From assembly GCA_016234725.1 (NCBI GenBank), contig JACRAK010000005.1, forward strand, positions 1-62,901: DNA of 62,901 nucleotides, read 5' to 3'. Shown here piece after piece: positions 11,791-61,522 of this stretch. Each line of letters opens with the position of its first letter. Within the stretch, counting starts at the first letter, position 1. Under the pieces are notes generated by a model, which was not told the origin of the DNA, made no database searches, and worked only from the letters and a program-made list of their open reading frames with translations. Origin of the DNA: Candidatus Azambacteria bacterium (GTDB lineage: Bacteria; Patescibacteriota; Minisyncoccia; GWC2-36-17; WO2-46-25). Made by a program: the position numbers and the translations under genes.

Positions 11791-11829
11791 AGCAAAGAAC
11801 CTGGCTTATTATTTCGTAATTCAAGGATA

Positions 11830-13644: not shown

Positions 13645-13649
13645 AATAG

Positions 13650-28255: not shown

Positions 28256-28805
28256 AGTACGCTCCGCGAAGCGTTGCGGAAGAATTCACCGCAATGCGCG
28301 CCTGGTCTTTTAGATTCGTGCTTTGCGTGTTGATGCGCGCTTGAATACTCACCGTGACAGAATCTTTTCCTGTCGCAGAAGAAAATTTGGTAAATCGCAG
28401 TTGCTCGACAAATACCCGCTCGGACGTAAGCGGATTTGTGCTTTGCCCGTCCCTTTTTTCATACACCCTTCCGTTGTCCACATAAAAATCAACGTATGCA
28501 CCATTCTCTCCTGAAGGCGCATTCAGTGCGGTTTCCACAGAAAGCTGGCCCGCATCGGCATCAAGTACGCTTGTCGGCATATATACGCTTTTTGCATATC
28601 TGATTTCATCAATGATCGTCCGTAATGCGCCATTTGTATTTTGAAAGACATTTTGCTGCGCAACGGATTTATCATATGCTTTCAAATTATCCATGAGCGA
28701 CGACGTGATAACCGCCATCACGACACCGGCGATACCGACATAGATAAGCATTTCAATGATGGTAAAACCCTTTTCACGAAACGTGAAACGTGAAACGTGA
28801 AACAT
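28254..28805 (-). CDS. Minor pilin (PilW-like) with prepilin-type N-terminal cleavage/methylation motif
   Basis: MFHVSRFTFREKG/FTIIEMLIYVGIAG (G-1, F+1, E+5). Start trimmed to the ATG at 28805. Confidence 0.7.
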   Translation of the reverse strand: MFHVSRFTFREKGFTIIEMLIYVGIAGVVMAVITSSLMDNLKAYDKSVAQQNVFQNTNGALRTIIDEIRYAKSVYMPTSVLDADAGQLSVETALNAPSGENGAYVDFYVDNGRVYEKRDGQSTNPLTSERVFVEQLRFTKFSSATGKDSVTVSIQARINTQSTNLKDQARIAVNSSATLRGAY

Positions 28806-28962
28806 GGATCTTGAATCTTGAATCCTGAAACGTGGAGCACGAAGCAACAAGCTTCGATTGAGGCATTGCGCGTCTGCTTTTCTGTTTTCTGTTTCACGTT
28901 CCATGTTTCAAGATTTTGGTTTCATGCTTCAAGTTTCATGTTCTATGGTTTCAGTTCTTCAG
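28776..28962. repeat. Heptanucleotide-periodic palindromic module, copy H6
   Basis: gaaacgt x3-4 ... cttgaat cttgaat cctgaaa on the left. gtttcac gttccat gtttcaa ... gtttcat on the right. About 50 nt non-repeat centre. Confidence 0.7.
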
Positions 28963-31656: not shown

Positions 31657-31766
31657 CGCTTCCCCCGTTCAATTCTTTCTTTTATCTTAACGGAAGTGCA
31701 GCTCTTCAATAATCCCTATATACAAGAGCGTGAACGGATTAAAGAAAGAATTGAACGAGGGAAGCG
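31657..31766. repeat. Conserved-core long hairpin element, copy B (core inverted relative to A and C)
   Basis: Stem cgcttcccccgttcaattctttc / gaaagaattgaacgagggaagcg (1 mismatch). The core reads atcttaacggaagtgcagctcttc...gagcgtgaacggattaaa. Inner hairpin GCTCTT/AAGAGC covaries with GCCCTT/AAGGGC of the other copies. Confidence 0.75.
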
Positions 31767-35341: not shown

Positions 35342-35953
35342 TTATTTCGTCGCTTTCGCGACGAGCTGTTGTATTGCCTCGTATCCGAGGCGTTCCTTCC
35401 AGGAGAAATAATCGTTGTACGGAATGCGGTGGATATTCATCTCTTCGCCGTCCGTCACTTTCAAAAGAGATACGATGGTCGTTTCAATGCCTTCTTTTTC
35501 CTTGAACCTTTTCTTTGCGTTCATTAACGATTCAACAACGTCAATGGGCGAGATCCCGTTGTCCCTCGCCGCCTCGCACGGAAAATGATTTTCCGCTAAG
35601 ATCGCCCCATACCCTTTCTTCAACGCGAACTTGATGACCGAGATCAGGTCCTTGTCCGTGGTATGACCAGGCTTTATGAGTTTTGAACCATCATCAAACA
35701 CAAGCGTTCCACCGGGCCAAGGAACAGGCCAAAACGAGAGTTTATGTGTTTTATCGTACTTCTTCATAAAAACATCCGTGCTCCGCACATAATGCCTGCC
35801 GTCACAGCAACTCACATAAATGACGTTTTCTTTCCGGGGAATCGTTTCATTCCCGCAGAAATGCTCTTTCTTCATATCGTGCAGCAGGCCCGCATCCTTC
35901 AACACCCTCATCACCGCCCGCTCTTCAGGCGACAGCTCCAAGTGCTTTATCAT
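35342..35953 (-). CDS. Hypothetical protein with beta-carbonic-anhydrase-like CxDxR ... HxxC motif pair
   Basis: 203 aa. VSCCDGRH (CxDxR) and ENHFPCEAA (HxxC), in the spacing and length range of beta-class carbonic anhydrases. The assignment rests on motifs only. Confidence 0.35.
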   Translation of the reverse strand: MIKHLELSPEERAVMRVLKDAGLLHDMKKEHFCGNETIPRKENVIYVSCCDGRHYVRSTDVFMKKYDKTHKLSFWPVPWPGGTLVFDDGSKLIKPGHTTDKDLISVIKFALKKGYGAILAENHFPCEAARDNGISPIDVVESLMNAKKRFKEKEGIETTIVSLLKVTDGEEMNIHRIPYNDYFSWKERLGYEAIQQLVAKATK

Positions 35954-36520: not shown

Positions 36521-36632
36521 GAAGCGGTCATCCGCAACTCTTTCTTCCATCCGCTCGCGCCCTTTTATAGTTATAATAATGAAGGGCTGCGCTTCCGTTA
36601 AGATTGCAGAAAGAGTTGCGGATGACCGCTTC
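36521..36632. repeat. Conserved-core long hairpin element, copy C (between atpD and atpC)
   Basis: 24 bp perfect stem gaagcggtcatccgcaactctttc / gaaagagttgcggatgaccgcttc. Core in the same orientation as copy A. Confidence 0.75.
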
Positions 36633-36653: not shown

Positions 36654-38048
<1,395 letters not shown>

Positions 38049-39617
38049 TTAAAGGTCGTTCCCCGAATATGATAGATTAAAGCTTTTATTTATTAAAGGG
38101 AAGTCCGGCACGATGTTCCCCGGACCGGCATGTTCGATCAAGCTCCAATTCAAAAAAGAAGGGTCGCGCACGTCTACTCTGCTGATGTCGCCCTGCCCGT
38201 CGGTCATCACCACATACACGATCTCTCCCCGCCATCCTTCCACCATGCTCACGACAACCGCATTTTTTTCCAAAGAAAAACCCCCGCCTGCCGTTACCGT
38301 ATCGCTGCCGCCCGGCAATTTTTCGAGCGCTTCCTTGATGAGTTTATACGAAGAATATACCTCCTTGATGCGCACATAGAACCGTGCGTTGACGTCCCCC
38401 TCTTTGCCGGTCGCAACTGCAAGGTCGCAATGAGGGTACGCGGCGTACGGATGATCCGCCCGCACATCGTGCGCGATGCCCGCCGCTTTAGCCGCAACAC
38501 CCGTCGCGCCATGATCGCGCGCGACTTCGTGCGATACCACGCCGGTGTCTTTAAGCCGATTAAGCAGCGACGCGCTGTTTTCCGCGACATCGATGACCTG
38601 CGAGAAATCATTGATGATACGCCGCAATTCTTCAATGAGCTTTCCTTTTTCTTCTTTTGTAATATCTCGGGAGACGCCGCCGATCACGTTCACCATTCTC
38701 AAAAACCTGCTTCCGGTCAAACGCTCGTTGATCTGCATGACCATCTCGCGCAATCTGCCGCCGTTGGCGCCGCCGAAATTAAACCCGGTGTCCAGCATGA
38801 TCGCCCCGATGTCGCCGAAATGGTTCGCGAGCCGTTCAAGCTCCGCATATACGACGCGAAGATATTTTGAGCGCTCCGCCGCCTTCACGCCCCCGAGCCG
38901 CTCGATCGCCTGGCAGAACGCAAGCGAGTGGGAGAACGAACTGTCTCCCGATATCTTTCCCGACAGGCGGATCTTTTTTTCAAGCGGCAATGTCTCAAAT
39001 AATTTCTCGGTCCCTTTATGCACGAACCCGAGCCGCGGCTCAAGCGAAAGGATCTCTTCGCCCGCTACGTTGAACCGGAAATGCCCCGGCTCGATGATGC
39101 CCGCGTGAATGGGACCTACCGGGATCTCATACACTCCTTCGCCTTCCACCCGCTGAAAATCATACCGTCCATGCGCGCGCGGAGGCCTTTCCTTCCCGTT
39201 GAAATCCTTCCGCAACGGAAACACATCGGCAGGCCAATTTTCATGCAAGATAAGCGGCCGCGGGTCGGGATGCCCGACCGGGGTAAGACCGAAGAACGTT
39301 TTTATTTTCCTTTCATAATTCCACGCCTTATGGATGACCGGCGCGCATGAGGGAAATTCCTCCCTATTGCGGAGCGCGATAAAAGGAACAATGAACGCGC
39401 GTTCCTCGGGCGCGAAAAACACATAGAAAATTTTAAAACATCCGTGCTCGTTCCGCTCATCCGCCGCAGTGATCATTTTTAACGATAACGAATGTACGGC
39501 GTACAGCTTTGTGACGACATCCACGATCTCGTCTGCGGGCACTTCAAACAGCGCCGTATTCCCGCTCATGCGGGCGGTGAACTTTTCCGGAATGTAGTGA
39601 CGAATATTTTCTAGCAT
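38049..39617 (-). CDS. Fused NuoC-NuoD / HycE-like large subunit lacking the NiFe-ligating cysteines
   Basis: PVGPIHAGIIEPGHFRF and LEPRLGFVHKGTEK are typical of group 4 hydrogenase large subunits and NuoD. The L1 site reads ISGDSSFSH instead of RxCGxCxxxH. The C-terminus reads NLSYSGNDL instead of DPCxxCxx(R/H). Start taken at the ATG at 39617; the longer ORF runs to 39656. Confidence 0.8.
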   Translation of the reverse strand: MLENIRHYIPEKFTARMSGNTALFEVPADEIVDVVTKLYAVHSLSLKMITAADERNEHGCFKIFYVFFAPEERAFIVPFIALRNREEFPSCAPVIHKAWNYERKIKTFFGLTPVGHPDPRPLILHENWPADVFPLRKDFNGKERPPRAHGRYDFQRVEGEGVYEIPVGPIHAGIIEPGHFRFNVAGEEILSLEPRLGFVHKGTEKLFETLPLEKKIRLSGKISGDSSFSHSLAFCQAIERLGGVKAAERSKYLRVVYAELERLANHFGDIGAIMLDTGFNFGGANGGRLREMVMQINERLTGSRFLRMVNVIGGVSRDITKEEKGKLIEELRRIINDFSQVIDVAENSASLLNRLKDTGVVSHEVARDHGATGVAAKAAGIAHDVRADHPYAAYPHCDLAVATGKEGDVNARFYVRIKEVYSSYKLIKEALEKLPGGSDTVTAGGGFSLEKNAVVVSMVEGWRGEIVYVVMTDGQGDISRVDVRDPSFLNWSLIEHAGPGNIVPDFPLINKSFNLSYSGNDL

Positions 39618-39633
39618 ATGGTTGCAATAAGTT

Positions 39634-41079
39634 CTAATACGATGCCGCGACCGCACTCACCAACGTATACAGATACGCGGGCGGATGCACGCTCAGATAT
39701 ACGAATAAAACGACAAGCACAAAAGAAGGGATGATGAGCCACGCGCTCGATTCCCCTTGAGCGATCTCCTCCGGCTTTTCCCCGAACATCATCGCGTGAG
39801 TATGCTTCAGAAACGCGACAAATGCAACGATGAGCGAAAGCACGGCAACGATCACGGCAACCGGATGCGCCGCCATGCCTGCGGCCGCGATGTGCGCTTT
39901 GGTCAAAAACAACCCCAGCGGCGGGATGCCGCTTGCCGCGAGAAATCCGAAAATGAACAGCGCGCTCGTTGCGGGGATCGCGCGCAAGGCGCCCCGCACA
40001 TGGCGTATCTTTGTCGAGCTGTATTTCAAAAAGATGTTGCCTGCGGCAAAAAAGAGAATTGCCTTGGCCAGCGAGTGATACACCATGTGAAGCGCCGCCG
40101 CCAAGGCGCCGATGCCCCCGAACCCAAAACCCAGCGCCATCATGCCGGCATGTTCGATGCTTGAATACGCGAGAAGCCGCTTGTAATTTTTCTGAGCGAA
40201 CATAATGAACGCGGCAACAACGACCGACAGCACCCCGAGCGCCACCAGCAACTGGCCGGTGAACTCGGTACCCACCGCGCTATCCGTGATCGATTTGAAC
40301 CGCAGCATCGCGGCAAGCGCGACATTGAGCAATGCGCCGGAAAACAGCGCCGCGATCGGCGTCGGTGCCTTGCCGTACGCATCGGGCTTCCATGTGTGCA
40401 TGGGCGCAAGACCGATCTTCGTGCCATACCCGATCAGCACGAAGATGAATGCGATCTTCGCGATCACCGGATCCAGCGCTCCCGCATGCGACGACAGCAG
40501 CCCCCAGTCCACCAGCGGCATGCTTCCGCCCGTTTCCACCGACGTGAAATACAGCAATGTCCCGAAAAACCCGAGCAACAGGCCGACCGAATTGATGATC
40601 AGATATTTCCATGCCGCCTCCATCGCCGACGGCTTATTGTAAAAGCTTATGAGAAACGCCGTCGAGAGCGTGGTCGCTTCGATGGCGATCCACGTCAGGA
40701 TCGGGTTTGCGGTCGATGCGGCAAAAAGCATCGCGCCGACAAATAGGTTAAAGAAAAGAAAATACTGCCTCGTTCTGCTGCTGCCGATCACCTTTTTTTC
40801 CGCTTCTTCCCGTATATACGCTACCGAATAAAACGCCGCAGCGCACCCCACGACCGCGATCGTGGCGATCACCAATGCGCCGAGCGCGTCAACGGAAAAA
40901 TACACCGAGCGGGAATACACGCCGTCTTTCGCGACATTGAACGCAAGCAGTGCGGCAGATGCCAGCACCACGACAGAAGCGATCATGGTTGCCGCTTCCA
41001 TGACAGCTCTCCGCTTGGTGATAAGCGCGATACATGAAGCGATACACGGCGATGCGATGGCGAGGAATATAAGGCTCAT
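39634..41079 (-). CDS. Proton-conducting antiporter-like membrane subunit (HyfF / NuoN-M / MrpD-like)
   Basis: About 481 aa polytopic protein of the Proton_antipo_M type. Start taken at the ATG at 41079, adjacent to the upstream stop. Confidence 0.75.
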   Translation of the reverse strand: MSLIFLAIASPCIASCIALITKRRAVMEAATMIASVVVLASAALLAFNVAKDGVYSRSVYFSVDALGALVIATIAVVGCAAAFYSVAYIREEAEKKVIGSSRTRQYFLFFNLFVGAMLFAASTANPILTWIAIEATTLSTAFLISFYNKPSAMEAAWKYLIINSVGLLLGFFGTLLYFTSVETGGSMPLVDWGLLSSHAGALDPVIAKIAFIFVLIGYGTKIGLAPMHTWKPDAYGKAPTPIAALFSGALLNVALAAMLRFKSITDSAVGTEFTGQLLVALGVLSVVVAAFIMFAQKNYKRLLAYSSIEHAGMMALGFGFGGIGALAAALHMVYHSLAKAILFFAAGNIFLKYSSTKIRHVRGALRAIPATSALFIFGFLAASGIPPLGLFLTKAHIAAAGMAAHPVAVIVAVLSLIVAFVAFLKHTHAMMFGEKPEEIAQGESSAWLIIPSFVLVVLFVYLSVHPPAYLYTLVSAVAASY

Positions 41080-41080
41080 A

Positions 41081-41728
41081 TTATTCTTTGAGGCGCTGCA
41101 TGGCGGTGACATCAAGCGACCCGAATTGTTTATACATCATGGACGTGAATACGGTTGCCACGACCACCCACACTAAAATATCGAACATGATCCCCATCTG
41201 AAGCCCCGGCGCCTGTTCGAGCCCGGCGAACACCGCGAACGCGACGATGCTGTTTTCAAGCGACAAGATCCCGATCATCTGCGAGATCGCTCCTTTGCGG
41301 TTGACGATAAGGAACAGGGAAATGAGCATCATCGCGAGCGCAAGCGAGAGCATGCCTTCGCGCCCGTTGCCGAGAGCAACAAGCGGAGCGAAAATATGCG
41401 AACGCGTGAGCGCGGTGAGCGCAGCGACCGCGATCAGCGTCAACGGGACGCTCAGGTACGTGCTCGCAGAGAACTTCAACTGATGCCGCTTGATCAAATG
41501 CGCGAAAAACAGGGGCGCGATCAGCGTCTTCACGGCGAACGTCGCGAGCGCGACGAACAACAGCGGCCGCGAATCCGCTTCGATCGATGCCGCGAGCAAT
41601 ATCGTTGCCATCGCGGCGGATTGCGCACAATACAAAACCGCCGCCGTCGAATTCTTCTTCACCACGTGCAAAAACACCGCGGCAAGGAACATGATGACTA
41701 TCAATAATTGTACGAAAAGATGTTCCAT
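41081..41728 (-). CDS. HyfE-like small membrane subunit (NuoK-related)
   Basis: About 215 aa with 6-7 TM helices. The length and position match hydrogenase-4 component E. Confidence 0.6.
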   Translation of the reverse strand: MEHLFVQLLIVIMFLAAVFLHVVKKNSTAAVLYCAQSAAMATILLAASIEADSRPLLFVALATFAVKTLIAPLFFAHLIKRHQLKFSASTYLSVPLTLIAVAALTALTRSHIFAPLVALGNGREGMLSLALAMMLISLFLIVNRKGAISQMIGILSLENSIVAFAVFAGLEQAPGLQMGIMFDILVWVVVATVFTSMMYKQFGSLDVTAMQRLKE

Positions 41729-41960
41729 GATCACATACCTTGCATTATAAAATGGCTTTTGAGATATTTTTTAGGTAATTTTGAGCGAGACGAAGCAAAA
41801 ATTTTGAAGGTCGAATCAAAGTTCGACATTGCTGTTTGTGAGCCAATCGCTTCGCTCTTGGACAAACAGGGAACATATACGGCGTATACATTGAAAAGTT
41901 TTTGCAAAGCCGCAGCCGAAATTACCAAAAAAGAGCCAAAATGTATTTTATAATTCAAGG

Positions 41961-42887
41961 TCATATAAGGCCGATGGCGATAACGCTTAAAATAAATGAT
42001 ACGAACAGCACGTCCGGCAAGCGGAAGAACCGGAGTTTTGCGATGACCGATTCCACGACCGCAATGCTCGCACAAAACGCAAGCGCTTTTATCGCAAATG
42101 CGACAAGCGCACCCGCAAGAGCGACCATGCTTGCATCATGCGCGATGCCCCACGGGAAAAACAAGTTCGCCCCGAGCGCAATGAAGATCATGAGCTTGTT
42201 TGCGGACGCCCACTCTATCAGCGCGAGCCGCTTTCCCGAATACTCAAGGATCATCGCTTCGTGGATCATGGTGAGCTCAAGATGCGTGGAAGGATTATCG
42301 AACGGAAAGCGCTTGTTCTCCGCAAGCAGCACGATAAAGAACCCGGCGAACGCGAAAAATGCCGGCAGCATCGATGTGAGCTCGGCGGAAGCAATGGTCT
42401 CTGCGACCCTAAACACATTGCTCGTGCCGCTCATCAGCGCGACCGTCAACAGCGAAAAGAGCAGACCGCCTTCTGCGAGCGCGGCAACCGTCACTTCCCT
42501 GCTTGATCCAAACCCTCCGAACGCGCTGCCCGTATCCATGCCGGCAAGCGCAACGAAAAACGTCGCGGCCGCCATGAGATAGACGATAACGAGGATATCG
42601 CTCGTGAATCCATTCGCCATAAACGACGCGAACACGGGAACGCTCGCGCCGACCACCAGCGTGATGGCAAAGATGGCGAGCGGCGCAAAACGAAAGATCC
42701 ACGATGCGTCGGCGCTGATCACCTCATCCTTATGCAAAAGCTTCCATATATCGCGATACGGCTGAAGCACGCTTGCGCCCTTCCGGTTCTGCAACACCGC
42801 CTTGATCTTCCTGATAACGCCGATAATAAGCGGGGAAAGCGCCGGTATGCACAGTATTTGCATTGTCCACAGAATGCCCAGTGTCAT
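41961..42887 (-). CDS. NuoH / HycD / HyfC-like membrane subunit
   Basis: IIGVIRKIKAVLQNRKGASVLQPYRDIWKLLHKDEV (the NuoH/HycD N-terminal signature). 308 aa. Confidence 0.8.
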   Translation of the reverse strand: MTLGILWTMQILCIPALSPLIIGVIRKIKAVLQNRKGASVLQPYRDIWKLLHKDEVISADASWIFRFAPLAIFAITLVVGASVPVFASFMANGFTSDILVIVYLMAAATFFVALAGMDTGSAFGGFGSSREVTVAALAEGGLLFSLLTVALMSGTSNVFRVAETIASAELTSMLPAFFAFAGFFIVLLAENKRFPFDNPSTHLELTMIHEAMILEYSGKRLALIEWASANKLMIFIALGANLFFPWGIAHDASMVALAGALVAFAIKALAFCASIAVVESVIAKLRFFRLPDVLFVSFILSVIAIGLI

Positions 42888-42889
42888 AG

Positions 42890-44944
42890 TTACAAAATTA
42901 CATACACAAGCAATACAAGCAACGCGACGAATATATACAGCACATACGCGTTGATGTTGCCGCTCTGGATCGTTTTAACGCGCTCGGAAAATTTCGTCAA
43001 CGCGACCTGCAACGGCTCATACAGATATGCCCGGTAAATATCACTGATGCCGAGCGTGATCGTCCGTGCTTTGGGGAAATACCTCGCCGTGGCATCGCGA
43101 TATTCTATGCCCGTCTGTTTCGTGGGCTTCAGTATCCCTTTGAATATCATAATGATCGAGCGCGAGAATGCGGTCGCGGTGATCTCTGCGCGGGACGTGG
43201 GCGGCGTACCGCAATCCCATGTTTCTCCGATGACCACTTTCTGTTTCCGGTATGCCGCGCGAAGCCCGAGCGCCGCGATGCATGCCGCGACAATGAACAT
43301 CATCGCGATCGCCGGCGCGGAAGCCGAAGCAAAACCGTTCTGCACGGATATCTGCTCGAGCGGCGAAACGGCGAACGGCAACTCTGCGGCGCCGAACTTT
43401 CCGATATCGCGCGCCACCCGTCCGATCGTCAAAGAAACGCTTCCGGAAAACACGCCGAACACCAGCGCGAGCAGCGCCAAAAACGCCATGCCTGTCCGCA
43501 TCGAAAACGAGGATTCTTTCGCGTGCCGCGCCTCCTCGCTCCGCGGCCGCGCAAGGAACACCGCGCCGACCGCTTTTACGAAACACGCGAGCGCGAGCCC
43601 GCCGGTGAGCGCGAGCGCCCCCACCGCCAGCACGAATATCCAGCTTGCCGCGCTCGGAAGCGCAAGAATGCCGCCAAAGAGTGCCTGGAATGTCAGCCAT
43701 TCGCTGAAAAATCCGTTGAACGGCGGGAGCGCGGAGATCGCCATGGAACCGATCAGGAAAAAGAACGCGGTCTGCGGCATCCGCTTGATAAGCCCGCCGT
43801 ATTCTTCGATGTTCCGGGTGTGCGTCGCAGACACCACCGCGCCGGCGCTTAAGAATAGGAGCGATTTGAATGTCGCGTGATTGAGCGTATGAAACAGCGC
43901 GGCGACGATGCCCAGCGCCGCAAGCGGCAGCATGCCGGAAGAAGAAAACACCATCGCGCTCCCCACGCCAAGCAAAATGATGCCGATATTCTCAATGCTG
44001 TGATACGCAAGCAGCCGCTTCAGATCGTGTTCGGTCAGCGCGTATAATACTCCCAAAAGCGATGAAACCGCTCCCAAAACAAGCACCGTCAGCCCCCACC
44101 ACAGCGGGATATCGGTGAAGACATCGAGGAAGATCTTTATCATCATGTAGATGCCGGTCTTGATCATGACGCCCGACATCAGCGCCGACACGTGCGACGG
44201 AGCCGCGGGGTGCGCATCGGGAAGCCAGATATGGAGCGGAATGATGCCCGCCTTGGTGCCGAATCCGGCAAGTGCGAGCACAAAAACGACGCTTGCCGCA
44301 AACGGGGGAATGGATGCGATATTGTGCGCGATCGCTGCAAATTGGAACGACCCGGTGAATTTATACATCACCAAAAACGCTAAAAGGATGAAAGCGGTGC
44401 CGATATGCGTCATCACGAAATACAAAAACCCCGCGCGCACGTTGCGGTGATCGTTGCGCTCATACACCACCAAAAAATACGAAGCGACGGACATGATCTC
44501 CCACGCAATGAGAAATACCAATGCGTTCGATGCAGACACGACCAAAAGCATCCCTGCGATGAAAAAATTATAGAAAAACCCGAGGGATCCGATGTTATAT
44601 TTCTTATAAAAATGCCTCACATACCCCATGCCATAGATCGAGCACAAAAAAGCGATCAGCGAGATGACAAAAATAAAGAACGCGGAAAGCTTATCAATAT
44701 GAAACGACACCGAAAGCAGCGGGAATGCCGCGCTGGCATCAACGATGTACTCGGGCGCACTCACCGCAGTGACCGCAAGAAGCGCGTAGACGATACCCCA
44801 CGCCGACCCGAGCACGGCGAACGCGTTGCTCCAGACATTGGCTGCCGTGTCGCTTTTTCTCAATGCCAGCGCGCCGACAGCGCCGATCGCAAATGAAGCG
44901 ATCAACGCGCCAAACCCGTATGAAGATAAGATCGCTTCTATCAT
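42890..44944 (-). CDS. HyfB / NuoL / MrpA-like antiporter-type membrane subunit
   Basis: 684 aa polytopic protein of the Proton_antipo_M type. Its start overlaps the stop of the NuoB-like gene. Confidence 0.8.
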   Translation of the reverse strand: MIEAILSSYGFGALIASFAIGAVGALALRKSDTAANVWSNAFAVLGSAWGIVYALLAVTAVSAPEYIVDASAAFPLLSVSFHIDKLSAFFIFVISLIAFLCSIYGMGYVRHFYKKYNIGSLGFFYNFFIAGMLLVVSASNALVFLIAWEIMSVASYFLVVYERNDHRNVRAGFLYFVMTHIGTAFILLAFLVMYKFTGSFQFAAIAHNIASIPPFAASVVFVLALAGFGTKAGIIPLHIWLPDAHPAAPSHVSALMSGVMIKTGIYMMIKIFLDVFTDIPLWWGLTVLVLGAVSSLLGVLYALTEHDLKRLLAYHSIENIGIILLGVGSAMVFSSSGMLPLAALGIVAALFHTLNHATFKSLLFLSAGAVVSATHTRNIEEYGGLIKRMPQTAFFFLIGSMAISALPPFNGFFSEWLTFQALFGGILALPSAASWIFVLAVGALALTGGLALACFVKAVGAVFLARPRSEEARHAKESSFSMRTGMAFLALLALVFGVFSGSVSLTIGRVARDIGKFGAAELPFAVSPLEQISVQNGFASASAPAIAMMFIVAACIAALGLRAAYRKQKVVIGETWDCGTPPTSRAEITATAFSRSIIMIFKGILKPTKQTGIEYRDATARYFPKARTITLGISDIYRAYLYEPLQVALTKFSERVKTIQSGNINAYVLYIFVALLVLLVYVIL

Positions 44945-45492
44945 AGTGTTTTCTTTATCGCATGGGATGCACGCTCGTCGTTGGCCTCCAATATCTTCAA
45001 TATATGACTGAGGATCGTTTTTGGCGACGGAGGGTCTCCGGGAATATGATACTGCACCGGAACGGTATGTTCCGCGCCGTCGGTTGTCGCATACGACCCT
45101 TTAAAAATGCCGCCGTCGATCGCGTCATCGCCGACCGCCACCACGATCTTGGGCTCCGGCATACAGTCGTATGCTTTTTTGAGCGCTTCCTGCATGTTGC
45201 GCGTGACGGGTCCCGTCACCATCAGCATGTCTGCGTGCTTGGGAGAAGCGACAAAATGGACGCCGAACCGATCGACATCGTAGAACGCATTCCCCAGCGC
45301 GACGAGTTCCTGCTCTGCGGCGTTATCGGACCCCGCATCCACCATCCTGATGGCGAGCGATCCGCGAAACAGCTTTTTCACTTTTTCATGTATCGCTTCG
45401 CCGACCGCGACCATCTCTCCGTCGCGCATAAATGCGTCTAGAGGAATGACCTTGTTTTCCGTAGAGAAAATTTTAAATAAAAGTTTCAACAT
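44941..45492 (-). CDS. NuoB / HycG-like small subunit lacking all four [4Fe-4S] cysteine ligands
   Basis: The fold-defining stretch DRFGVHFVASPKHADMLMVTGPVT is conserved. The ligand positions read VDAGSDNAAEQE, VAVGDDAIDGG and IPGDPPSP, where the canonical sequences carry Cys (..C..C.., G.C, CPP). Confidence 0.8.
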   Translation of the reverse strand: MLKLLFKIFSTENKVIPLDAFMRDGEMVAVGEAIHEKVKKLFRGSLAIRMVDAGSDNAAEQELVALGNAFYDVDRFGVHFVASPKHADMLMVTGPVTRNMQEALKKAYDCMPEPKIVVAVGDDAIDGGIFKGSYATTDGAEHTVPVQYHIPGDPPSPKTILSHILKILEANDERASHAIKKTL

Positions 45493-45508
45493 ATGGGTTA
45501 TATATGGG

Positions 45509-46402
45509 CTATGCCATCGCTTCGGCCGCAGAACTGATCTCGGCGATCTCTTGCGTGATGCTCTGCTGGCGCGACTGATTATAATGCGACACGAGGTCTC
45601 CCAGAAGCTCTTCGGAATTTTTCGTCGCGTTATGCATCGCGATCATGCGTGCCGAATGCTCGGATGCATTCGATTCAAGCACCGTCTGATACAATTGCAT
45701 TTCCATCAATTGCGGAACCACCGCCTCAAGCACCTCCTCAGCCGACGGCTCGAATGAAAAGCGCCGCGCGCTCACCGCCTTCTGTTTCTGTGCGGATACG
45801 AAAAGTTCCCTTGCCGACAATAATTCGCTTTTCTCGATGGGAAGCAGCTGCTTGATCGCCGGCATCTGGGACGTAGACGAAAGAAAACGGTTGAACGCCA
45901 CGAAAACGGTATCCCGTTTCTCGGCGCGAAGCTCGTCAAAAAGAATGCGTACCGCGGGCCGCACCTCCACCACATGCGGGAGATTATCAAGCCGCGAGAA
46001 CGCGGCGACCACTTCTCGCCCCGTGCGCCGCGCGTAATCCGCGGCGGTTTTCCCGATGGTAATAAATGCGAATTTTTTCTTGGAGTTCGCGTCCAGGAAT
46101 TTTTCAAGAAAGCGGAACAGATTGCCGTTCAGGCCGCCGCACAGCCCTCGGTCGGACGACACCACCACGATGATACCTTCGCCTGTCGCTCTGGGACGCA
46201 AAAGAAAATGATCTTTGTTCTCTATTTTCTCGATCGCCTCGACCAAGATCTCCCACGCCTGCGCCGCATACGGCCGGGTGCCGAGCGCTTTATCCTGCGC
46301 TTTTTTCATTTTCACCGCCGCGACAAGCTCCATCGCGCGCGTGATCTTCTTCGTCGCTTTAACGCTCTTGATGCGCCGTTTGATTTCCTTGATCTTTGCC
46401 AT
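45509..46402 (-). CDS. atpG: F1 ATP synthase gamma subunit
   Basis: MAKIKEIKRRIKSVKATKKITRAMELVAAVKMKKAQ... 297 aa. Confidence 0.95.
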   Translation of the reverse strand: MAKIKEIKRRIKSVKATKKITRAMELVAAVKMKKAQDKALGTRPYAAQAWEILVEAIEKIENKDHFLLRPRATGEGIIVVVSSDRGLCGGLNGNLFRFLEKFLDANSKKKFAFITIGKTAADYARRTGREVVAAFSRLDNLPHVVEVRPAVRILFDELRAEKRDTVFVAFNRFLSSTSQMPAIKQLLPIEKSELLSARELFVSAQKQKAVSARRFSFEPSAEEVLEAVVPQLMEMQLYQTVLESNASEHSARMIAMHNATKNSEELLGDLVSHYNQSRQQSITQEIAEISSAAEAMA

Positions 46403-46405: not shown

Positions 46406-47908
46406 CTAATGTTCCCGCTTCTTGAATTCGCCGATCATGGACCGCAGTTCCGCCTCGATGTCGCCGCTGATCTTTTCTGCCGCAGCGATCTTTCCAAACA
46501 CATCCGGATGCACCGTTTGTGCGAATTGCAAAAGGTCTTTCTCGAATTTCCGCACTTTCGCGGGAGCGATATCGTCGGTAAGACCGGAGGTCACCGCAAA
46601 GATCGCAAGCACCTGTTCTTCGGTCGGCATCGGCTCGTTCTGATCTTGTTTGAGCAATTCCACCAGCCGTTTTCCGCGCTCCAGCCGCATTTTGGTCTGT
46701 TCGTCGAGGTCCGCTTCGAATTGCGCGAATGCCGCAAGCTCCCAATATTGCGCAAGCTCCAGCCGCATCTTCCCTGCAACGCTTTTCATCGCTTTGGTCT
46801 GCGCGGAAGAGCCGACGCGCGACACCGAAAGCCCCGCATTGATCGCGGGCCGCATGCCGGCGTAGAACATGTCGGTATCAAGATAGATCTGCCCGTCGGT
46901 AATGGAAATGACATTGGTCGGGATATATGCGGACACATCGCCCCCCTGCGTCTCAATGATGGGAAGCGCGGTCAAGCTGCCGCCGCCGTGTTCTTTGCTC
47001 AAGCACGCCGCGCGCTCAAGCAGGCGCGAATGAAGATAAAATACGTCGCCGGGATACGCCTCGCGGCCGGGCGGACAGCGCAACAACAGCGAGATCTGGC
47101 GATACGCCCACGCATGCTTTGAAAGGTCGTCGTACACGACGAGCACGTCCTTGCCCTGCGCCATGAAATATTCTCCCATGGCCGTCGCCGCATACGGTGC
47201 GAGATATTGCAGCGCCGCGGATGACGACGCGGACGCGTTCACCACGATCGTGTAATCCATCGCTCCGTGCTGTTCGAACAAACGCACGATCTTGGCCACC
47301 TTCGAATCCTTTTGCCCGACGGCGCAATAGACGCACACCACGTTGTCTCCTTTCTGATTTAAAATGGCATCGATCGCAATGGTCGTTTTTCCCGTCTGCC
47401 GGTCGCCGATGATAAGCTCGCGCTGGCCTCTCCCCACGGGAACCATCGCGTCGATCGCCTTGATGCCGGTCTTGAGCGGCGTCTTCACCGATTTGCGGGT
47501 GATCACGCCCGGCGCTATTTTTTCCACGACCATCGTTGCGTCGGCCGGGATCGCCCCGCGCCCGTCAAGCGGCTTCCCCAGCGGATCCACCACGCGCCCG
47601 ACGAACTTTTCTCCCGCGGGCACTTCAAGCACTTTCCCCGATGCGGTCACGCGGTCGCCTTCTTTAATATGCGCGAAGTCGCCGAGAATGATCGCGCCGA
47701 TCTCGTTCTCCTCAAGATTCATCGCGACACCCCAGGTATCTCCGGGAAAGCCGACCATTTCTGATGCCATGCACTCGGAAAGCCCCGCGATGCGCGCGAT
47801 GCCGTCGCGCACCTCGGTCACTACGCCCGTTTTTTGCACGGTCGTCCCTTCCTCGAATGCGCCTATCTCTTTCTTGATCTTTTCGATGATTGCTTTTGCT
47901 TCTTTCAT
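46406..47908 (-). CDS. atpA: F1 ATP synthase alpha subunit
   Basis: Walker A GDRQTGKT. 500 aa with full-length AtpA similarity. Confidence 0.95.
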
Positions 47909-47914: not shown

Positions 47915-48328
47915 TTATGCCGTCAATTGTTTTTTTAATTTTTCCAATTTTGTCCGCACGGTGCCGTCGATGATCATCTCGGGCGTGCGCACCGCAAGCC
48001 CTCCGATAAGAGAATCATCCACGGCAAAGCGCGCATCCACGTTTGCACTGTCTTTCTTTACCAATGCGGCGATCGCGCGGACCACTTCTTCCTTTTCTGC
48101 ATCCGCAAGCGCTGTGGCAGACACAACGTCCGCCGCCACAATACCTTTCTTTTTTTGTTCAATATTCGTAAGCTCCTTTTGAATTTTTGGCACCAATCCC
48201 TCAAGCCGGCGCGTGTGAAGATACGCGGCAAACGCCCGTGCAATGTCCGCCTCTTCTTTTTCGCTCTCTGCGCCCTGCACAAGCCCCCAAAGCGCCGCAG
48301 CGTATATGGCGTGTTTCTGGTGCTTCAT
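47915..48328 (-). CDS. atpH: F1 ATP synthase delta (OSCP) subunit, short form
   Basis: 137 aa. C-terminal DDSLIGGLAVRTPEMIIDGTVRTKLEKL is typical of OSCP. Position is between atpF and atpA. Confidence 0.8.
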   Translation of the reverse strand: MKHQKHAIYAAALWGLVQGAESEKEEADIARAFAAYLHTRRLEGLVPKIQKELTNIEQKKKGIVAADVVSATALADAEKEEVVRAIAALVKKDSANVDARFAVDDSLIGGLAVRTPEMIIDGTVRTKLEKLKKQLTA

Positions 48329-48330
48329 AT

Positions 48331-48816
48331 CTATGCGATCGTCTCCTTAATAAGGCGCTCGTGCCGTTCTTTGGTGATCTCTTCTTTCAGCACTTTTTCC
48401 GCCACCGCGATCGCGATGTCTCCCGCTTCCCGCTTGATCTCTGTCATCGCTTTGTCGCACTCCGCGCCGATCTCTTTTTTCGCCCGCTCAATAAGGCGCG
48501 CCGCTTCGTCGTTCGCTTTTTTCACAAGCCCGTCTTTCACTTTTTCCGCATCGTCGATCGCCTGCTCGATGATGGATTTCGCTTTCTCTTGCGCATGCTT
48601 CACCTCGCGCGCCGCGCGCTCGTCCGCTTCTTTCTGCGAGCGGGCGATCGCGTCCGCCTGCGCCATGCTTTCTTCTATTTTTTTCCGCCGCGCCTCCAAA
48701 ATACCGAGAAGCGGCTTATACAAAAACCGGTGCAGCACGAACAACAGGATCGAGAAATTCACGACCTGAAACAAAAACAACCGCCAATCGATCCCCAGTT
48801 TTGTGAAAATTTCCAT
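48331..48816 (-). CDS. atpF: Fo ATP synthase subunit b
   Basis: N-terminal TM helix LFLFQVVNFSILLFVL followed by a long charged helix. 161 aa. Confidence 0.85.
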   Translation of the reverse strand: MEIFTKLGIDWRLFLFQVVNFSILLFVLHRFLYKPLLGILEARRKKIEESMAQADAIARSQKEADERAAREVKHAQEKAKSIIEQAIDDAEKVKDGLVKKANDEAARLIERAKKEIGAECDKAMTEIKREAGDIAIAVAEKVLKEEITKERHERLIKETIA

Positions 48817-48872: not shown

Positions 48873-49142
<270 letters not shown>

Positions 49143-49198: not shown

Positions 49199-49951
49199 TC
49201 AATGCGCTTCTTCATGGTGCGTCGTCGCCACCTTCACGAAAATGAGCATAAGGCCGGCGAATATCGTCGCCTGAATGAGTCCCACCATCACCTCAAACAG
49301 CATGAACGGCACAGGCAAAAATAGCGGCATAAAATAGCTCATCACCAAAATAAGCACTTCGCCCGCAAAAATATTCCCAAACAGCCGGAACGAGAACGAA
49401 ACCAGCCGCGCCGCTTCGCTTATCGCCTCGATAAGGCCGATGAAAAACAAAAGGGGGCTTTTCAGATTGACGAACTTCTTCGCGTAATTCCACCCGCCGA
49501 TGACCGCGACCCCCATCGTTTGCACCATGATCACCGCAATGACAGAAAGCGCGATCGTGACATTCAGGTCGGTATTCACCGAACGCAGAAACGGCACCGT
49601 ATGTTCGCCGTTAAAAAAGGTGACGCTCCCGACGCCGGGAAGGAATTCCATCCAATTCGCCGTCACCACGAACAAAAACACCGTAACGATGAACGGAAAC
49701 ACCTTCATTGCAAGCTTTCGGTCGCCAAGCACCTCTTCCATCACCCCAAGCGCCGACTCCATCACCAGCTCGACGACATTTTGAATGCCCCGAGGAGAAG
49801 CAAACACAAGCTTTCTTCGCGCCACAAACGCAAGCGCGACAAGCACCGCCACCGCGCCCAATGAAGCGACGAGCGTATTGGTCACCGGCATGCCGAACAC
49901 ATCAAACAAGTGTTCCGGCGTAATAACGATTTCCAGTCCTTTTCCTTCCAT
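49199..49951 (-). CDS. atpB: Fo ATP synthase subunit a
   Basis: 250 aa. Conserved Arg region LVSFSFRLFGNIFAGE. Confidence 0.9.
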   Translation of the reverse strand: MEGKGLEIVITPEHLFDVFGMPVTNTLVASLGAVAVLVALAFVARRKLVFASPRGIQNVVELVMESALGVMEEVLGDRKLAMKVFPFIVTVFLFVVTANWMEFLPGVGSVTFFNGEHTVPFLRSVNTDLNVTIALSVIAVIMVQTMGVAVIGGWNYAKKFVNLKSPLLFFIGLIEAISEAARLVSFSFRLFGNIFAGEVLILVMSYFMPLFLPVPFMLFEVMVGLIQATIFAGLMLIFVKVATTHHEEAH

Positions 49952-54523: not shown

Positions 54524-56764
54524 TTATCTCATCTGAAACATACCGCGCAATCCGCCAAAAACACTCGCGGAAAGAACATCAAAGATGCCTCTGCTTTGTG
54601 GCGGTATTGTTGTCGGCTCGCTGGGAACGAGAGGAGGCACAGTTTCTTGAAGCTCCCTCATCTTTTCCATCGCCTCCGGCGTCAGTAATTTCGGATATGT
54701 TGCGGGATAATTCGGAAGATACGGTATCATCCGGCTTTCGGGGGTGATGGTTGTCGTCCCTGCCGGCCTCTCGAACTGCTTGACTCCACACGCGCCATCC
54801 TTTGCGATTACTGCGCCGTCCCGCTTCGCAAAACATGCGTTTGGATACGTGCGGTTATTCGCGCCGCACACCGGCTTGTACTCTTTCGTACACGCCTCGC
54901 CTGCTTCATTCGTTTCTCCTCCCGATGTTGATCCATCCTGTGTCCTGAATAAAGGTGTCGTGCGTGTAGGCGAAGCACCGAAGTCCTCACACTCAAAATC
55001 CCATCGTCCTTCTTTACAGATCGGTCCCTTGCACCCTGCGGGCGTTGGCATCGCGGGCCGAGGACCGCACTGGCGCATGTCTTCAAGCTTTCCTTCATAT
55101 CCCGCCGTAGTCCCGGGCTCCGTTTGCCGGAACAATTCTCCGGGTGGCACACCGCCAACGCTCGGATTGAATTGCGCGCACTCATCTCGGTGTTGTGGGT
55201 CAGAACAATACTTGATGCACGCTTCCGGTCCTTGGCATCCGCCGGGACCACTCGGAAATCCGTCTTGCATCATCATCTCCGGCTTGCGGAATTGCCCCTC
55301 AAGCTCTCTGAACTGCTCGAATTTTTCAAATCGCTTTTCTTCCATCTTCTTGAAATATTCGTCTCTCGGCATATCAGGCGCAAACCCCGCGGGCGGCATG
55401 CCGATCATCGGCCTGATCGCCTCGCCCGCACGGTGGATAAATTCGCGCAGTTTTTCTTCTGCATCGCCTTTTTGCATACCGCCCTGCTCTACCGCGAATG
55501 CAAGACATTCCTCCACGCGGGAAGGGTCACTGCAATATGTTTTACATTCTTTTTCCGATGTACATCCACCGGGACCGCCGACCTCCATTATTTTCTTGGT
55601 GAGCTCCCGTCCTTGTTCCATCATCTTTATCTCTCCTTCAGGAACGAGCTTGTTTTCTTTTGCGAACGCAATACATTCGCCCTGATGCTCTGGGTTTTCA
55701 CAGTATGTACGGCACGCTTCGCCTTTACACCCGCCGGGACCGCCGCGCTGTTCGATCGCTTTAAATTTCCTCACCCGCTCCACTTCTTCTTTCGGGATGA
55801 GATCGTTGTCCACGGCGAACTGAAAACACGCATCACGATTTTCCGGCTTCTCGCAAAAATCCTTGCACTCTCCGCCGCGGCATCCGCCTGGACCGGGCTT
55901 ATTTCCGAGCTTGCGCGCGCGCTCCGCTTCCTCCTTTGGCATCAAGCCATTTTGCGCTGCAAATGCGATGCACTCTTCAAAATTATCGGGATTGCCACAG
56001 TATGTTTTGCATTGTTCCCCTTTGCATCCGCCTGGGCCAATAGCCGGCATCTTTTTGATGCGCGCCGCTTCTTCCGGAGAAATAAGGTCATGTTCCTCGC
56101 CGAACTTCACGCACTCCACGGTGTTATCCGGGTTCTCGCAATATGCGCGGCACTCATTTTCCGTTGTGCATCCGCCGGGGCCGCCTTCTTCCATAACTTT
56201 TTTTGCGGCGCGTATCTTGTTTTTATCGATGAGATCATTTTTTTCCGCGAACGCGAGACATTCGCTTTGATGCGCAGGATTCTCGCAGTACGCGCGGCAT
56301 TCACCCGATGACTGGCATTGGCCGGGCCCGCCCTGTTCGCGGATAAGCCGCGCTCGTTCGCGCACTTCTTCCCCTTTCTTTACCTTGATGTCGTACTTAG
56401 TCGCAAAGCTCGCGCACTCTGTTTCATTCGCAAGATCGGCGCAGTACGCTTTGCATGCTTCTCCCGACGTACATCCGCCGGGACCTACCTTCGGAAGATC
56501 TTTCACGCGCTGTTCGTTCTCTTGCGACATCAACCCGTGTGCATGCGCAAATGCCACGCATACGTCTTTATTCGCGAGGTCGTCGCAATAGGTGCGACAC
56601 GCATCCTGATTTACGCAATTTCCGAGCTCCGCGATAGGAAAGGCAACGCCGATCACGTCATCCGTCGTGGTCGCCGTGGTATCTGGGGTTGCCGCCACCG
56701 CGACAAGCGACACGCTCAAGGCAAACATGCCACCCAGAGCAAACACAATGAATTTCCTTGGCAT
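54524..56764 (-). CDS. Secreted cysteine-rich repeat protein with C-terminal Kazal-like domain
   Basis: Signal peptide MPRKFIVFALGGMFALSVSLVAVA. About 10 repeats of GGPGGCxxxxxCxxYCxxPxxxxECxxFA. Near the C-terminus, CTKEYKPVCGANNRTYPNACFAKRDGAVIAKDGAC (Kazal pattern). Confidence 0.7.
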   Translation of the reverse strand: MPRKFIVFALGGMFALSVSLVAVAATPDTTATTTDDVIGVAFPIAELGNCVNQDACRTYCDDLANKDVCVAFAHAHGLMSQENEQRVKDLPKVGPGGCTSGEACKAYCADLANETECASFATKYDIKVKKGEEVRERARLIREQGGPGQCQSSGECRAYCENPAHQSECLAFAEKNDLIDKNKIRAAKKVMEEGGPGGCTTENECRAYCENPDNTVECVKFGEEHDLISPEEAARIKKMPAIGPGGCKGEQCKTYCGNPDNFEECIAFAAQNGLMPKEEAERARKLGNKPGPGGCRGGECKDFCEKPENRDACFQFAVDNDLIPKEEVERVRKFKAIEQRGGPGGCKGEACRTYCENPEHQGECIAFAKENKLVPEGEIKMMEQGRELTKKIMEVGGPGGCTSEKECKTYCSDPSRVEECLAFAVEQGGMQKGDAEEKLREFIHRAGEAIRPMIGMPPAGFAPDMPRDEYFKKMEEKRFEKFEQFRELEGQFRKPEMMMQDGFPSGPGGCQGPEACIKYCSDPQHRDECAQFNPSVGGVPPGELFRQTEPGTTAGYEGKLEDMRQCGPRPAMPTPAGCKGPICKEGRWDFECEDFGASPTRTTPLFRTQDGSTSGGETNEAGEACTKEYKPVCGANNRTYPNACFAKRDGAVIAKDGACGVKQFERPAGTTTITPESRMIPYLPNYPATYPKLLTPEAMEKMRELQETVPPLVPSEPTTIPPQSRGIFDVLSASVFGGLRGMFQMR

Positions 56765-57090: not shown

Positions 57091-57282
57091 CGTTATTACT
57101 ATTTAATTAATTCTTCCCGTCTTCTTTATAATATATAATGGATGACAGGGCTCTCTGTAGTATAAAGCATTTTTTGGCGGAGCGATACACGCGCACTATC
57201 CACATGCGCGGGAGAATATACATGCTCTGGAATTTTATCCGCAAATCAGGTATAACATATGTGCATTGCAGTAAAAGTTTAG

Positions 57283-57356
57283 GCGAGTGTCGTATAGTGG
57301 CAATACCCCAGTTTTCCAAACTGGTGCCGGGAGTTCGATTCTCCCCACTCGCTCCA
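57283..57356 (+). tRNA. tRNA-Gly (anticodon TCC), CCA encoded
   Basis: Acceptor GCGAGTG/CACTCGC, anticodon loop TTTCCAA, T-arm GGGAGTTCGATTCTCCC, then T-CCA. Confidence 0.85.
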
Positions 57357-57400
57357 ATAAACACAAAGAGCCCTTCTGGGGTACTTTGTGTTTATACAGA

Positions 57401-57540
57401 GGGGAATCGAAGGGTATTCCAAAAATATGAACTGCTTCATATTTTTGGAAACCCGGACTCTGAAGGAGAAGCGACGCTTGTCATGAGCTTGTCGAAGGAC
57501 GCGGAGCTTCGGATGAAGAGGATTCTCCCCACTCGCTCCA
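57401..57540 (+). repeat. tRNA-linked structured element, copy 3 (cognate to tRNA-Gly)
   Basis: GGGGAATCGAAGGGTAT, where AATCGAA is the reverse complement of the T-loop TTCGATT. Perfect hairpin ttccaaaaatatgaa-CTGC-ttcatatttttggaa. 20 nt perfect direct repeat gattctccccactcgctcca at 57337-57356 and 57521-57540. Confidence 0.75.
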
Positions 57541-57551
57541 AGACCAAACCC

Positions 57552-61324: not shown

Positions 61325-61368
61325 ATATGTAATTACTCTTGCATTACGAAACCACACCATGTTCTTGT

Positions 61369-61480: not shown

Positions 61481-61522
61481 AATAACCAACATAAATATAT
61501 TTCGTAATGCAAGGAAATCGAT

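Follow-up and report, generated by a model that had tools for sequence, protein, structure and literature searches.

A tiny groundwater bacterium assigned to Candidatus Azambacteria carries a six-gene membrane module inside its F1Fo ATP synthase operon, between atpG and atpD at positions 38049-45492 of the 63-kb stretch of contig JACRAK010000005.1 analysed here (the window). The module is intact, strongly conserved and truly integrated in the F1Fo operon. By its gene families and sequence motifs, it is an Ehr-type (energy-converting-hydrogenase-related) membrane complex. That it is a real module, cofactor-less and maintained by selection, is close to certain. The best explanation overall, to which we assign a probability of about 0.4, is that it would work without redox chemistry, as a proton-coupled machine powered by the H+-ATPase and perhaps resembling the DAB and Cup systems.

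The operon runs on the minus strand in the order atpB-E-F-H-A-G, followed by the module and then by atpD and atpC. Promoter-like sites lie upstream of atpB, at 50152-50125 and 49991-49963. In operon order, the genes are:

49199..49951, minus strand: atpB (Fo subunit a), the first operon gene; Pfam ATP-synt_A, E 2e-37
48873..49118, minus strand: atpE (Fo subunit c), predicted H+ type; Pfam ATP-synt_C
48331..48816, minus strand: atpF (Fo subunit b); Pfam ATP-synt_B
47915..48328, minus strand: atpH (delta/OSCP), short, 137 aa; Pfam OSCP, profile positions 67-172 only
46406..47908, minus strand: atpA (F1 alpha); Pfam ATP-synt_ab, including the N and C domains
45509..46402, minus strand: atpG (F1 gamma); Pfam ATP-synt, E 5e-84
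44941..45492, minus strand: small subunit (NuoB/HycG/EhrS-like), lacking the [4Fe-4S] site; Pfam Oxidored_q6
42890..44944, minus strand: HyfB/NuoL-like antiporter-like subunit, 684 aa; NCBIfam HyfB equivalog
41961..42887, minus strand: HycD/NuoH-like subunit; Pfam NADHdh
41081..41728, minus strand: HyfE-like (NuoK/J-like) membrane subunit, 215 aa; matched by the NCBIfam hydrogenase-4 membrane subunit model with an E-value of 8e-18; start set by alignment with loci L005 and L165
39634..41079, minus strand: HyfF/NuoN-like antiporter-like subunit, 481 aa; NCBIfam HyfF, E 1e-122
38049..39617, minus strand: fused NuoC-NuoD/HycE-like large subunit (EhrL-like), 522 aa; Pfam Complex1_30kDa and Complex1_49kDa
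36654..38021, minus strand: atpD (F1 beta); Pfam ATP-synt_ab; 96-97% identical to L005 and L165
36059..36484, minus strand: atpC (F1 epsilon); Pfam ATP-synt_DE_N and ATP-synt_DE

All eight atp genes were identified by Pfam. For the module, Pfam returned Oxidored_q6 at 44941-45492 (E 3e-23), NADHdh at 41961-42887 (E 9e-43), a weak Oxidored_q2 match at 41081-41734, Complex1_30kDa plus Complex1_49kDa at 38049-39656, and Proton_antipo_M at both 42890-44944 and 39634-41115. The top NCBIfam models for the module proteins were HyfB (684 bits against a cutoff of 667), HyfF, HyfE, NuoB and NuoD. The gene order (NuoB/HycG-like, HyfB-like, HycD/NuoH-like, HyfE-like, HyfF-like and NuoCD/HycE-like), the open reading frame (ORF) coordinates and the six families had all been proposed from the letters of the sequence in the original prediction, and the profile searches bear them out. 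Equally accurate were its junctions: 16 nt separate atpG from the module (45493-45508) and 27 nt separate the module from atpD (38022-38048), and the inner junctions are overlaps or gaps of about 2-16 nt, except for a spacer of 232 nt (41729-41960). Judging from homologue lengths and junction sequence, three starts are likely to be different, at ATG 41728 for the HyfE-like protein, ATG 41079 for the HyfF-like protein and ATG 39617 for the large subunit, which would have 522 aa rather than the 535 aa of the original ORF. As a separate observation, the short AtpH covers the C-terminal two-thirds of the OSCP profile, and its counterparts in L165 (137 aa) and L173 (133 aa) are similar.

The module is devoid of ligands for NiFe, for the proximal [4Fe-4S] cluster and for quinone. 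In the small subunit, HMMER alignment places D56, A59, D123 and D153 at the positions of the four cluster-ligand cysteines of MbhJ (6cfw_J) and HycG (7z0s_G). Alignment of the large subunit to HycE (7z0s_E) shows that the N-terminal NiFe cysteine pair is replaced by Ser and Ser (KISGDSSFSH) and the C-terminal pair by Ser and Gly (NLSYSGNDL). In complex I structures, His38 and Tyr87 of Nqo4 serve as quinone ligands. An ungapped HMMER alignment to 2fug_4 (Thermus thermophilus Nqo4) matches them to Ile175 and Gly224 (numbering of the 535-aa ORF). No CxxCxxCxxxC(P) ferredoxin motif was found in any window ORF of at least 60 aa, and the Pfam scan of 36 window proteins detected neither Hyp maturation families nor NuoI, NuoA/J or NuoEFG. 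These results agree with what had been read from the sequence alone, namely that both sets of cysteines are lost and that a HycF/NuoI-type subunit and hyp genes are missing from the window; every peptide quoted at that stage was found in the translations. With the NiFe, quinone and [4Fe-4S] sites lost and no ferredoxin-like subunit, the module should therefore be unable to transfer electrons.

An aspartate-triad metal site in place of the cluster was also considered. Among the 120 nearest relatives of the small subunit, about 99% have Asp at the third ligand position, but the support is only partial: deeper branches of the clade carry Gly or Glu there, and Thr, Ser, Glu or Ala at the other ligand positions. 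Because of this variation, we do not claim such a site.

The channel residues, by comparison with the cofactor sites, are well preserved. The HyfB-like subunit keeps the channel motifs WE, GTKAG, MIKTG, FKS and FFSEW, the HyfF-like subunit keeps IAIE, GTKIG, LAKA and LTKA, and the NuoH-like subunit keeps ENKRFPFD...EL...EYSG. The charged Glu and Lys residues of antiporter-like channels are thus retained in both Proton_antipo_M subunits. Across 26 diverse relatives, the large subunit shows no variation in the motifs of the former active site or in the beta1-beta2 loop region (PIHAGIIEPGHFRF).

Each of the six module genes evolves under purifying selection, with a ratio of nonsynonymous to synonymous substitution rates (dN/dS) of 0.07-0.12 in comparisons with L005 and L165 (0.09-0.12 for the small-subunit gene), the same range as that of the atp genes. 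The dN/dS check suggested with the original prediction thus came out as strong for the module as for the ATP synthase itself, and pseudogene decay is ruled out. The two comparators, a Saccharibacteria metagenome-assembled genome (MAG; L005) and a Hainich groundwater contig (L165), have large subunits 86% and 85% identical to that of the window, respectively, and share the same atpBEFHAG-module-atpDC order. As independent assemblies with identical order and junctions, they rule out mis-assembly, so the junctions are not chimeras. The dS values in these comparisons were about 0.6-1.0, and the atp linkage has been kept across such divergence. The nearest labelled relative is the Saccharibacteria MAG, and database clusters related to the large subunit at 61% identity or above number more than 120 and span several phyla; those with a named source include Patescibacteria, Peregrinibacteria, Gracilibacteria, Paceibacterota and Firestonebacteria. 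The HyfB gene of L166, which had seemed absent, proved to be an intact ORF of 685 aa. Frameshifts from long-read sequencing account for the broken genes in L167 and L171, and in L167 they disrupt the atp genes as well. A foreign island was not indicated by composition, given that there is no clear step in G+C content (GC) and that the module (0.53-0.57) is near its surroundings.

To place the module among Ehr complexes, 174 loci were retrieved, 160 from two collection scans and 14 from contig look-ups. This non-random sample contains 30 unique loci of the clade without the small-subunit Fe-S site (the Fe-S-less clade) and 113 of Fe-S-retaining clades. The large-subunit signature xSGD...SYSG(N/T/H)D is common to essentially all Ehr-type loci sampled, including those of Nitrospira, Rokubacteria, Acidobacteria, Verrucomicrobia and Thaumarchaeota, while the few true hydrogenases in the sample have RICGAC...ELCYSC instead. 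The neighbour-joining tree agrees, since the large subunit of the module groups with Ehr and not with true group-4 hydrogenases. The loss of NiFe is, therefore, a known Ehr trait, and the NiFe-less large subunit is not a special feature of the module.

What distinguishes the module at the molecular level, as far as its sequence and those of its relatives go, is the clade-specific loss of the small-subunit Fe-S site. All four cysteines (CCCC) are present in the small subunit of 113 out of 113 other unique loci, compared to none or one in 30 out of 30 loci of the clade (with patterns such as DCDD, TCDD, DADD, DCDN and TEGD). The 120 nearest small-subunit clusters likewise have at most one Cys at the ligand positions, and eight of them have no Cys at all. 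The small-subunit gene is also the first of the cluster in this clade, and the last in most other loci.

A monophyletic, patchily distributed Ehr clade rich in members of the Candidate Phyla Radiation (CPR) and lacking the large-subunit NiFe cysteines has already been published (Jaffe et al. 2020, BMC Biol, PMC7304191). The module clade is very probably the same one, although that paper makes no mention of the ATP synthase, antiporter subunits, small-subunit cluster loss or neighbours resembling carbonic anhydrase (CA). The Fe-S-less clade also takes in non-CPR members. In a Firestonebacteria locus (L003), the cofactor-less module is flanked by a cytochrome c552 (NrfA-like) gene (2751-4343) on one side and by genes of carbon monoxide dehydrogenase/acetyl-CoA synthase (CODH/ACS; 11619-14567) on the other, from which it follows that the clade is not restricted to non-respiring organisms. 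The original prediction knew of no description of such a module inside an atp operon, and in the literature searched, which did not include Marreiros et al. 2013, we likewise came across no description of Ehr complexes associated with atp genes or with CA. The module thus appears to be new in three ways, none of them found described in that literature: the total loss of cofactors, the integration in the atp operon and the CA-like partner.

The linkage to the ATP synthase recurs across the clade. We found atp genes within the retrieved flanks of 13 out of 30 Fe-S-less loci, compared to none of the 113 Fe-S-retaining ones (Fisher p=1.3e-10). The module lies inside the operon between atpG and atpD in the window, L005 and L165; it directly follows atpC in L168 (gap of 10 nt), L090 (35 nt), L173 (63 nt), L167 and L127, and is found further downstream of the atp genes in L017, L008 and L059. 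It precedes atpB in L093, is convergent with the atp operon in L174 and is inverted between atpD and atpC in L011 (Daviesbacteria). The remaining 17 loci of the clade have no atp linkage. The first description of the module as spliced into the atp operon, hence, holds for the window, L005 and L165, where the survey shows that the embedded arrangement recurs in independent assemblies, but not for the other loci. The atp-linked loci are scattered over the neighbour-joining tree of the clade, its deepest branches included. By our estimate, adjacency would arise by chance in about 3% of loci in a 1-Mb genome, that is, in about one of the 30.

The ion used by this ATP synthase can be predicted from its c subunit, for which a Na+-binding motif is established. 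The c subunit of the window has no Gln in helix 1 and no Ser or Thr after the Glu, and the same is true of L005, L165, L173 and L093. In the absence of the Na+ signature, these subunits are predicted to be H+-coupled, and a Na+-coupled ATP synthase is ruled out.

The gene cluster closes with a gene, missed in the first reading, whose product resembles a beta-class CA. Two features are relevant here:

35342..35953, minus strand: orf203, a soluble beta-CA-like protein with a putative Zn site, identified from its AlphaFold2 fold, Foldseek matches and conserved residues
35307..35338, no strand assigned: bidirectional terminator-like hairpin closing the gene cluster, with a 12-bp GC-rich stem flanked by T and A runs

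orf203 lies 105 nt after atpC, with no further co-directional gene between it and the terminator. It has no Pfam or NCBIfam match, and its 101 relatives are also without a Pfam match. A full HMMER scan gave 319 representative clusters of proteins of about 190 aa. Across the 101 family members, C49 and C126 are invariant, and conservation is at least 90% at D51, G81, G82, H123, P125 and A129; in the subfamily of the window, C49-x-D51-G-R53 and H123-x-x-C126 are invariant. This C-D...H-x-x-C conservation is the Cys-Asp...His-x-x-Cys pattern of beta-class CAs. The AlphaFold2 model (pLDDT 82, pTM 0.82) retrieved beta-CAs as its top Foldseek matches in the PDB, namely 3las (E 3e-4, probability 1.0), 6jqd, 6lai, 4wam and 6lac, with TM-scores of 0.40-0.53. 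The best PDB sequence match of the family profile is also a beta-CA (1ddz_A, E 0.007), over the HxxCG motif. The narrow profile (A4) gave no match in the PDB; it was the broad profile and the fold search, and these alone, that pointed to a beta-CA.

Genes of the orf203 family adjoin the module in seven places, among them L005, L165, L166, L093, L168 and L172. In L093, the homologue sits between the module and atpB, and in L166 and L172, it stands beside the module with no atp genes nearby. At the same position, Pro_CA_2 (PF20393, 'putative carbonic anhydrase') was detected in L059 (47.9 bits), L174 (32.5 bits) and, as a fragment, L090. Altogether, a CA-like gene accompanies the module in nine out of 30 Fe-S-less loci and in the window, and none was found in the Fe-S-retaining loci. 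A 238-aa ORF between atpC and the inverted module of the Daviesbacteria locus (L011, 3424-4140, minus strand) was not counted: its near-full-length match to PF18484 (cadmium CA repeat) is below threshold (E 0.006) and hhalign gave no link to orf203. Separately, L172, a 1.07-Mb Patescibacteria contig whose module has an orf203-type gene and no atp linkage, carries a heliorhodopsin gene (12-797) about 9 kb upstream of the module.

These observations bear on what the module may do. It is rather probable that it acts as a redox-independent, ion-translocating device functionally tied to the ATPase. The original prediction of a redox-dead ion translocator is upheld to this extent, by the lost cofactors, the retained channel residues and the purifying selection; its Mrp-like version is now only a rival. 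In the mechanism that we favour, the F1Fo complex would hydrolyse ATP and so build up a proton-motive force in a bacterium of a presumed non-respiring type, and protons would re-enter through the HyfB/HyfF/HycD-type channels of the module. Since a pure proton conductor without redox centres would be an uncoupler, this flux must be coupled to something else, and the strong conservation of the cytoplasmic cap (the NuoB-like and NuoCD-like subunits) argues for a coupled process that still takes place at or through the cap. The likeliest such process would be the directional hydration of CO2, or the handling of CO2, HCO3- or pH, by the neighbouring beta-CA-like Zn protein. DAB1 and DAB2 are vectorial CAs driven by the proton-motive force and built from a NuoL-like and a beta-CA-like subunit. 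Given this precedent, and given that the ATPase and the CA-like protein are the sole recurrent candidates in the neighbourhood, a DAB/Cup-like role is favoured. The specific coupling of the module to a CA is nevertheless a tentative proposal, with the odds somewhat against it.

Several points weigh against this interpretation. CPR genomes are small and the loci were not drawn at random, so that chance adjacency is about 3% per locus and not about 0.5%. No atp linkage was found within the retrieved flanks of the Firestonebacteria, Endomicrobiales, Thermoleophilia and Bdellovibrionales members. The CA-like gene stands beside only about one third of the modules, orf203 fits no Pfam CA model, its Foldseek TM-scores are modest, and, of the Asp-Arg dyad of beta-CAs, the Arg is kept only in the subfamily of the window and not across its wider family. 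Moreover, the 105-nt gap after atpC and promoter-like sites mean that orf203 may be transcribed separately. Nor is there an obvious need for energised CO2 hydration in a CPR bacterium that is not autotrophic.

The main rival is essentially the original reading, a Mrp-like secondary antiporter in which the gradient of the H+-ATPase would drive the expulsion of Na+ (or K+), for ion and pH homeostasis or for a sodium gradient used in uptake, with the cap as a structural lid. We regard it as unlikely, although it accounts well for a complex free of cofactors that contains two MrpA/MrpD-type subunits with intact Glu and Lys channel residues and a NuoK-like segment and is co-encoded with an H+-type ATPase; CPR ATPases are, in addition, expected to drive antiporters (Moreira 2021, PMC8080830). 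The module has no MrpE/F/G-type subunits and no recognisable Na+ site, and a structural lid would leave unexplained about 700 cap residues at 60-86% identity, the invariant former active site and the recurrent CA-like neighbour.

The tight operon junctions on both sides, the loci in which the module comes right after atpC and the restriction of the atp association to the cofactor-less clade would also fit a physical partner or regulator of the ATP synthase located beside Fo, such as a proton funnel, a stator-associated scaffold or a direction brake, whose position inside the operon would secure stoichiometric co-assembly. With 17 out of 30 loci not atp-linked, and some of the others convergent or inverted, neither co-translation nor co-assembly can be required, and such a partner has no precedent, which makes this explanation improbable.

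It is highly improbable that the module is still a redox enzyme receiving electrons from an unlinked partner through non-canonical ligands or a bound organic cofactor, even though its former active site is highly conserved, one Firestonebacteria locus adjoins NrfA and CODH/ACS genes and other Ehr complexes have been suggested to work with redox partners, as in the formate dehydrogenase-Ehr idea (Matheus Carnevali 2019, PMC6349859): 150 small subunits have at most one Cys at the four cluster positions, eight being Cys-free, the window shows no ferredoxin motif, the quinone ligands are missing, and the Fe-S-retaining Ehr clades form a separate group. An equally slight chance attaches to a fortuitous insertion, in which a horizontally mobile six-gene cassette, its function having nothing to do with the ATP synthase, would have settled at a tolerant site of a strongly expressed operon, and for which the patchy CPR Ehr distribution suggestive of transfer (Jaffe 2020, PMC7304191) and the tolerance of the window genome for other insertions in the same operon could be invoked, but which is at odds with 13 linked loci where our estimate predicts about one, in several lineages and configurations, with a GC close to that of the surroundings and with linkage kept at a dS of about 0.7-1.

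If a proton-coupled, redox-independent machine is indeed what these genes encode, the consequences reach beyond this genome. Many CPR/Patescibacteria have an F1Fo ATP synthase without a respiratory chain, and its coupling is an open question (Moreira et al. 2021, PMC8080830). A conserved membrane machine in or beside the atp operon of many such genomes would be the first concrete candidate for an ATPase partner, and would explain why non-respiring Patescibacteria retain the enzyme. It would also mean that the complex I architecture can work without any redox chemistry. That a cofactor-free chassis is kept at a dN/dS near 0.1 speaks for coupling machinery able to drive, or be driven by, a non-redox process, which is relevant to the evolution and coupling mechanism of complex I. 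The CA-like neighbour adds a specific hypothesis that can be checked with established assays. In its boldest form, which we consider rather unlikely, the clade would be a third, independently evolved vectorial CA driven by the proton-motive force or, more broadly, a redox-free energy converter of the complex I type, combining a complex-I-like chassis with a small beta-CA-like Zn subunit and serving as the dedicated consumer of the F1Fo proton gradient in non-respiring Patescibacteria.

Two further elements interrupt the operon of the window:

41729..41960, no strand assigned: AT-rich insertion of 232 nt resembling a miniature inverted-repeat transposable element (MITE), with 25-nt terminal inverted repeats; peculiar to this genome, being absent in the relatives L005 and L165
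36485..36653, no strand assigned: atpD-atpC spacer of 169 nt, with a 31-nt-arm hairpin element at 36521-36632; minimum free energy (MFE) -71.2, z=-7.7

The first sits in the spacer between the HycD-like and HyfE-like genes, where L005 and L165 have 8 nt. Its GC is 37%, its inverted repeats lie at 41737-41761 and 41937-41961, and its RNA is predicted to fold with an MFE of -61.7 kcal/mol (z=-4.6); it may cause attenuation or processing of the operon transcript. An 81-codon plus-strand ORF in this spacer has no support as a gene, the spacer being a MITE-like insertion. The second element belongs to a family of nested hairpins with four copies in the window (11680-11791, 31657-31766, 36521-36632 and 61368-61481), all intergenic and found in both orientations. 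They have arms of about 31 nt and a loop of 50 nt; the inner stem (CTTTCTTT(T/A)ATC ... GAT(T/A)AAAGAAAG) and the inner hairpin are conserved, and the outer stems differ in sequence and remain complementary. In L005 and L165, atpD and atpC abut with no hairpin element between them, which indicates that the element is mobile, like a MITE or a repetitive extragenic palindromic (REP) sequence. An Rfam search of the whole window returned only tRNAs and no family for the hairpin elements.

Elsewhere in the window lie genes for type IV pili, type II secretion and glycogen metabolism, together with those for a class I aminoacyl-tRNA synthetase, TsaD, VanW, HU and nine tRNAs, which fits a Patescibacteria genome. 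Heptamer repeats of the GAAAC(G/A)T type, in runs that form imperfect palindromes, occur in and around the intergenic regions of the pilus cluster (24207-24314 and 28765-28930). A 746-aa protein (54524-56764, minus strand) has a Kazal-type serine protease inhibitor as its sole recognisable domain, which is unusual for bacteria. A membrane protein of the vitamin K epoxide reductase (VKOR) family is encoded at 57138-57992 on the plus strand; as VKOR proteins normally use quinone, it stands out in a lineage for which quinone-dependent respiration is not expected.

Compared with named systems, the best sequence matches of the module are to Escherichia coli hydrogenase-4 (Hyf) and FHL-1 (7Z0S), with HyfB above the cutoff, HyfF, HyfE, HycE (E 2e-74) and HycG (E 2e-24). 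Unlike them, it has no NiFe, no Fe-S clusters, no HyfA/HyfH/HycB/HycF, no HyfD and no formate dehydrogenase. The L1 (RxCGxCxxxH) and L2 (DPCxxCxxH/R) motifs that define group 4 [NiFe]-hydrogenases read KISGDSSFSH and NLSYSGNDL in the module, and the proximal [4Fe-4S] cluster and the 2x[4Fe-4S] subunit (HycF/HyfH/MbhN) of that group are likewise missing. With respiratory complex I, it shares the core homology of the Q-module and P-module, with a conserved NuoD beta1-beta2 loop region and NuoH motifs, but it lacks the N2 cluster, the His38/Tyr87 quinone ligands, NuoI and NuoEFG.

The Mrp Na+/H+ antiporter and the Mrp module of Mbh (6CFW) resemble it in having MrpA/MrpD-like subunits with conserved Lys and Glu and no redox chemistry, and MbhJ is the best structural relative of its small subunit. 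Unlike Mrp, the module has NuoH-, NuoB- and NuoCD-like subunits and no matches to MrpE/F/G; of the small Mrp subunits B, C, E, F and G, it has only a NuoK/MrpC-like segment, in the HyfE-like protein. As in DAB (DabAB) and NDH-1MS/CupA, a complex-I-type proton-conducting subunit is encoded together with a beta-CA-like Zn protein. However, orf203 is small (about 190 aa), soluble and unrelated in sequence to DabA (PF10070) or CupA, and the membrane part is a six-subunit Ehr complex, known here from its genes, and not a single DabB. Lacking homology to DabA or CupA, orf203 would not make the module a member of the DAB/Cup systems but, at most, an analogue of them.

The systems that it matches most fully are the Ehr complexes, such as EhrABCDLS of Geobacter (PMC6349859, PMC7894505), reportedly treated by Marreiros et al. 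2013. It shares with them the small, large, NuoH-like, HyfE-like and antiporter-like subunits and the NiFe-less signature xSGD...SYSG(N/T)D. It departs from the 113 other Ehr/hydrogenase-type loci sampled, which have four small-subunit cysteines where its clade has none or one, and among all the loci sampled, linkage to atp operons and CA-like genes is confined to this clade.

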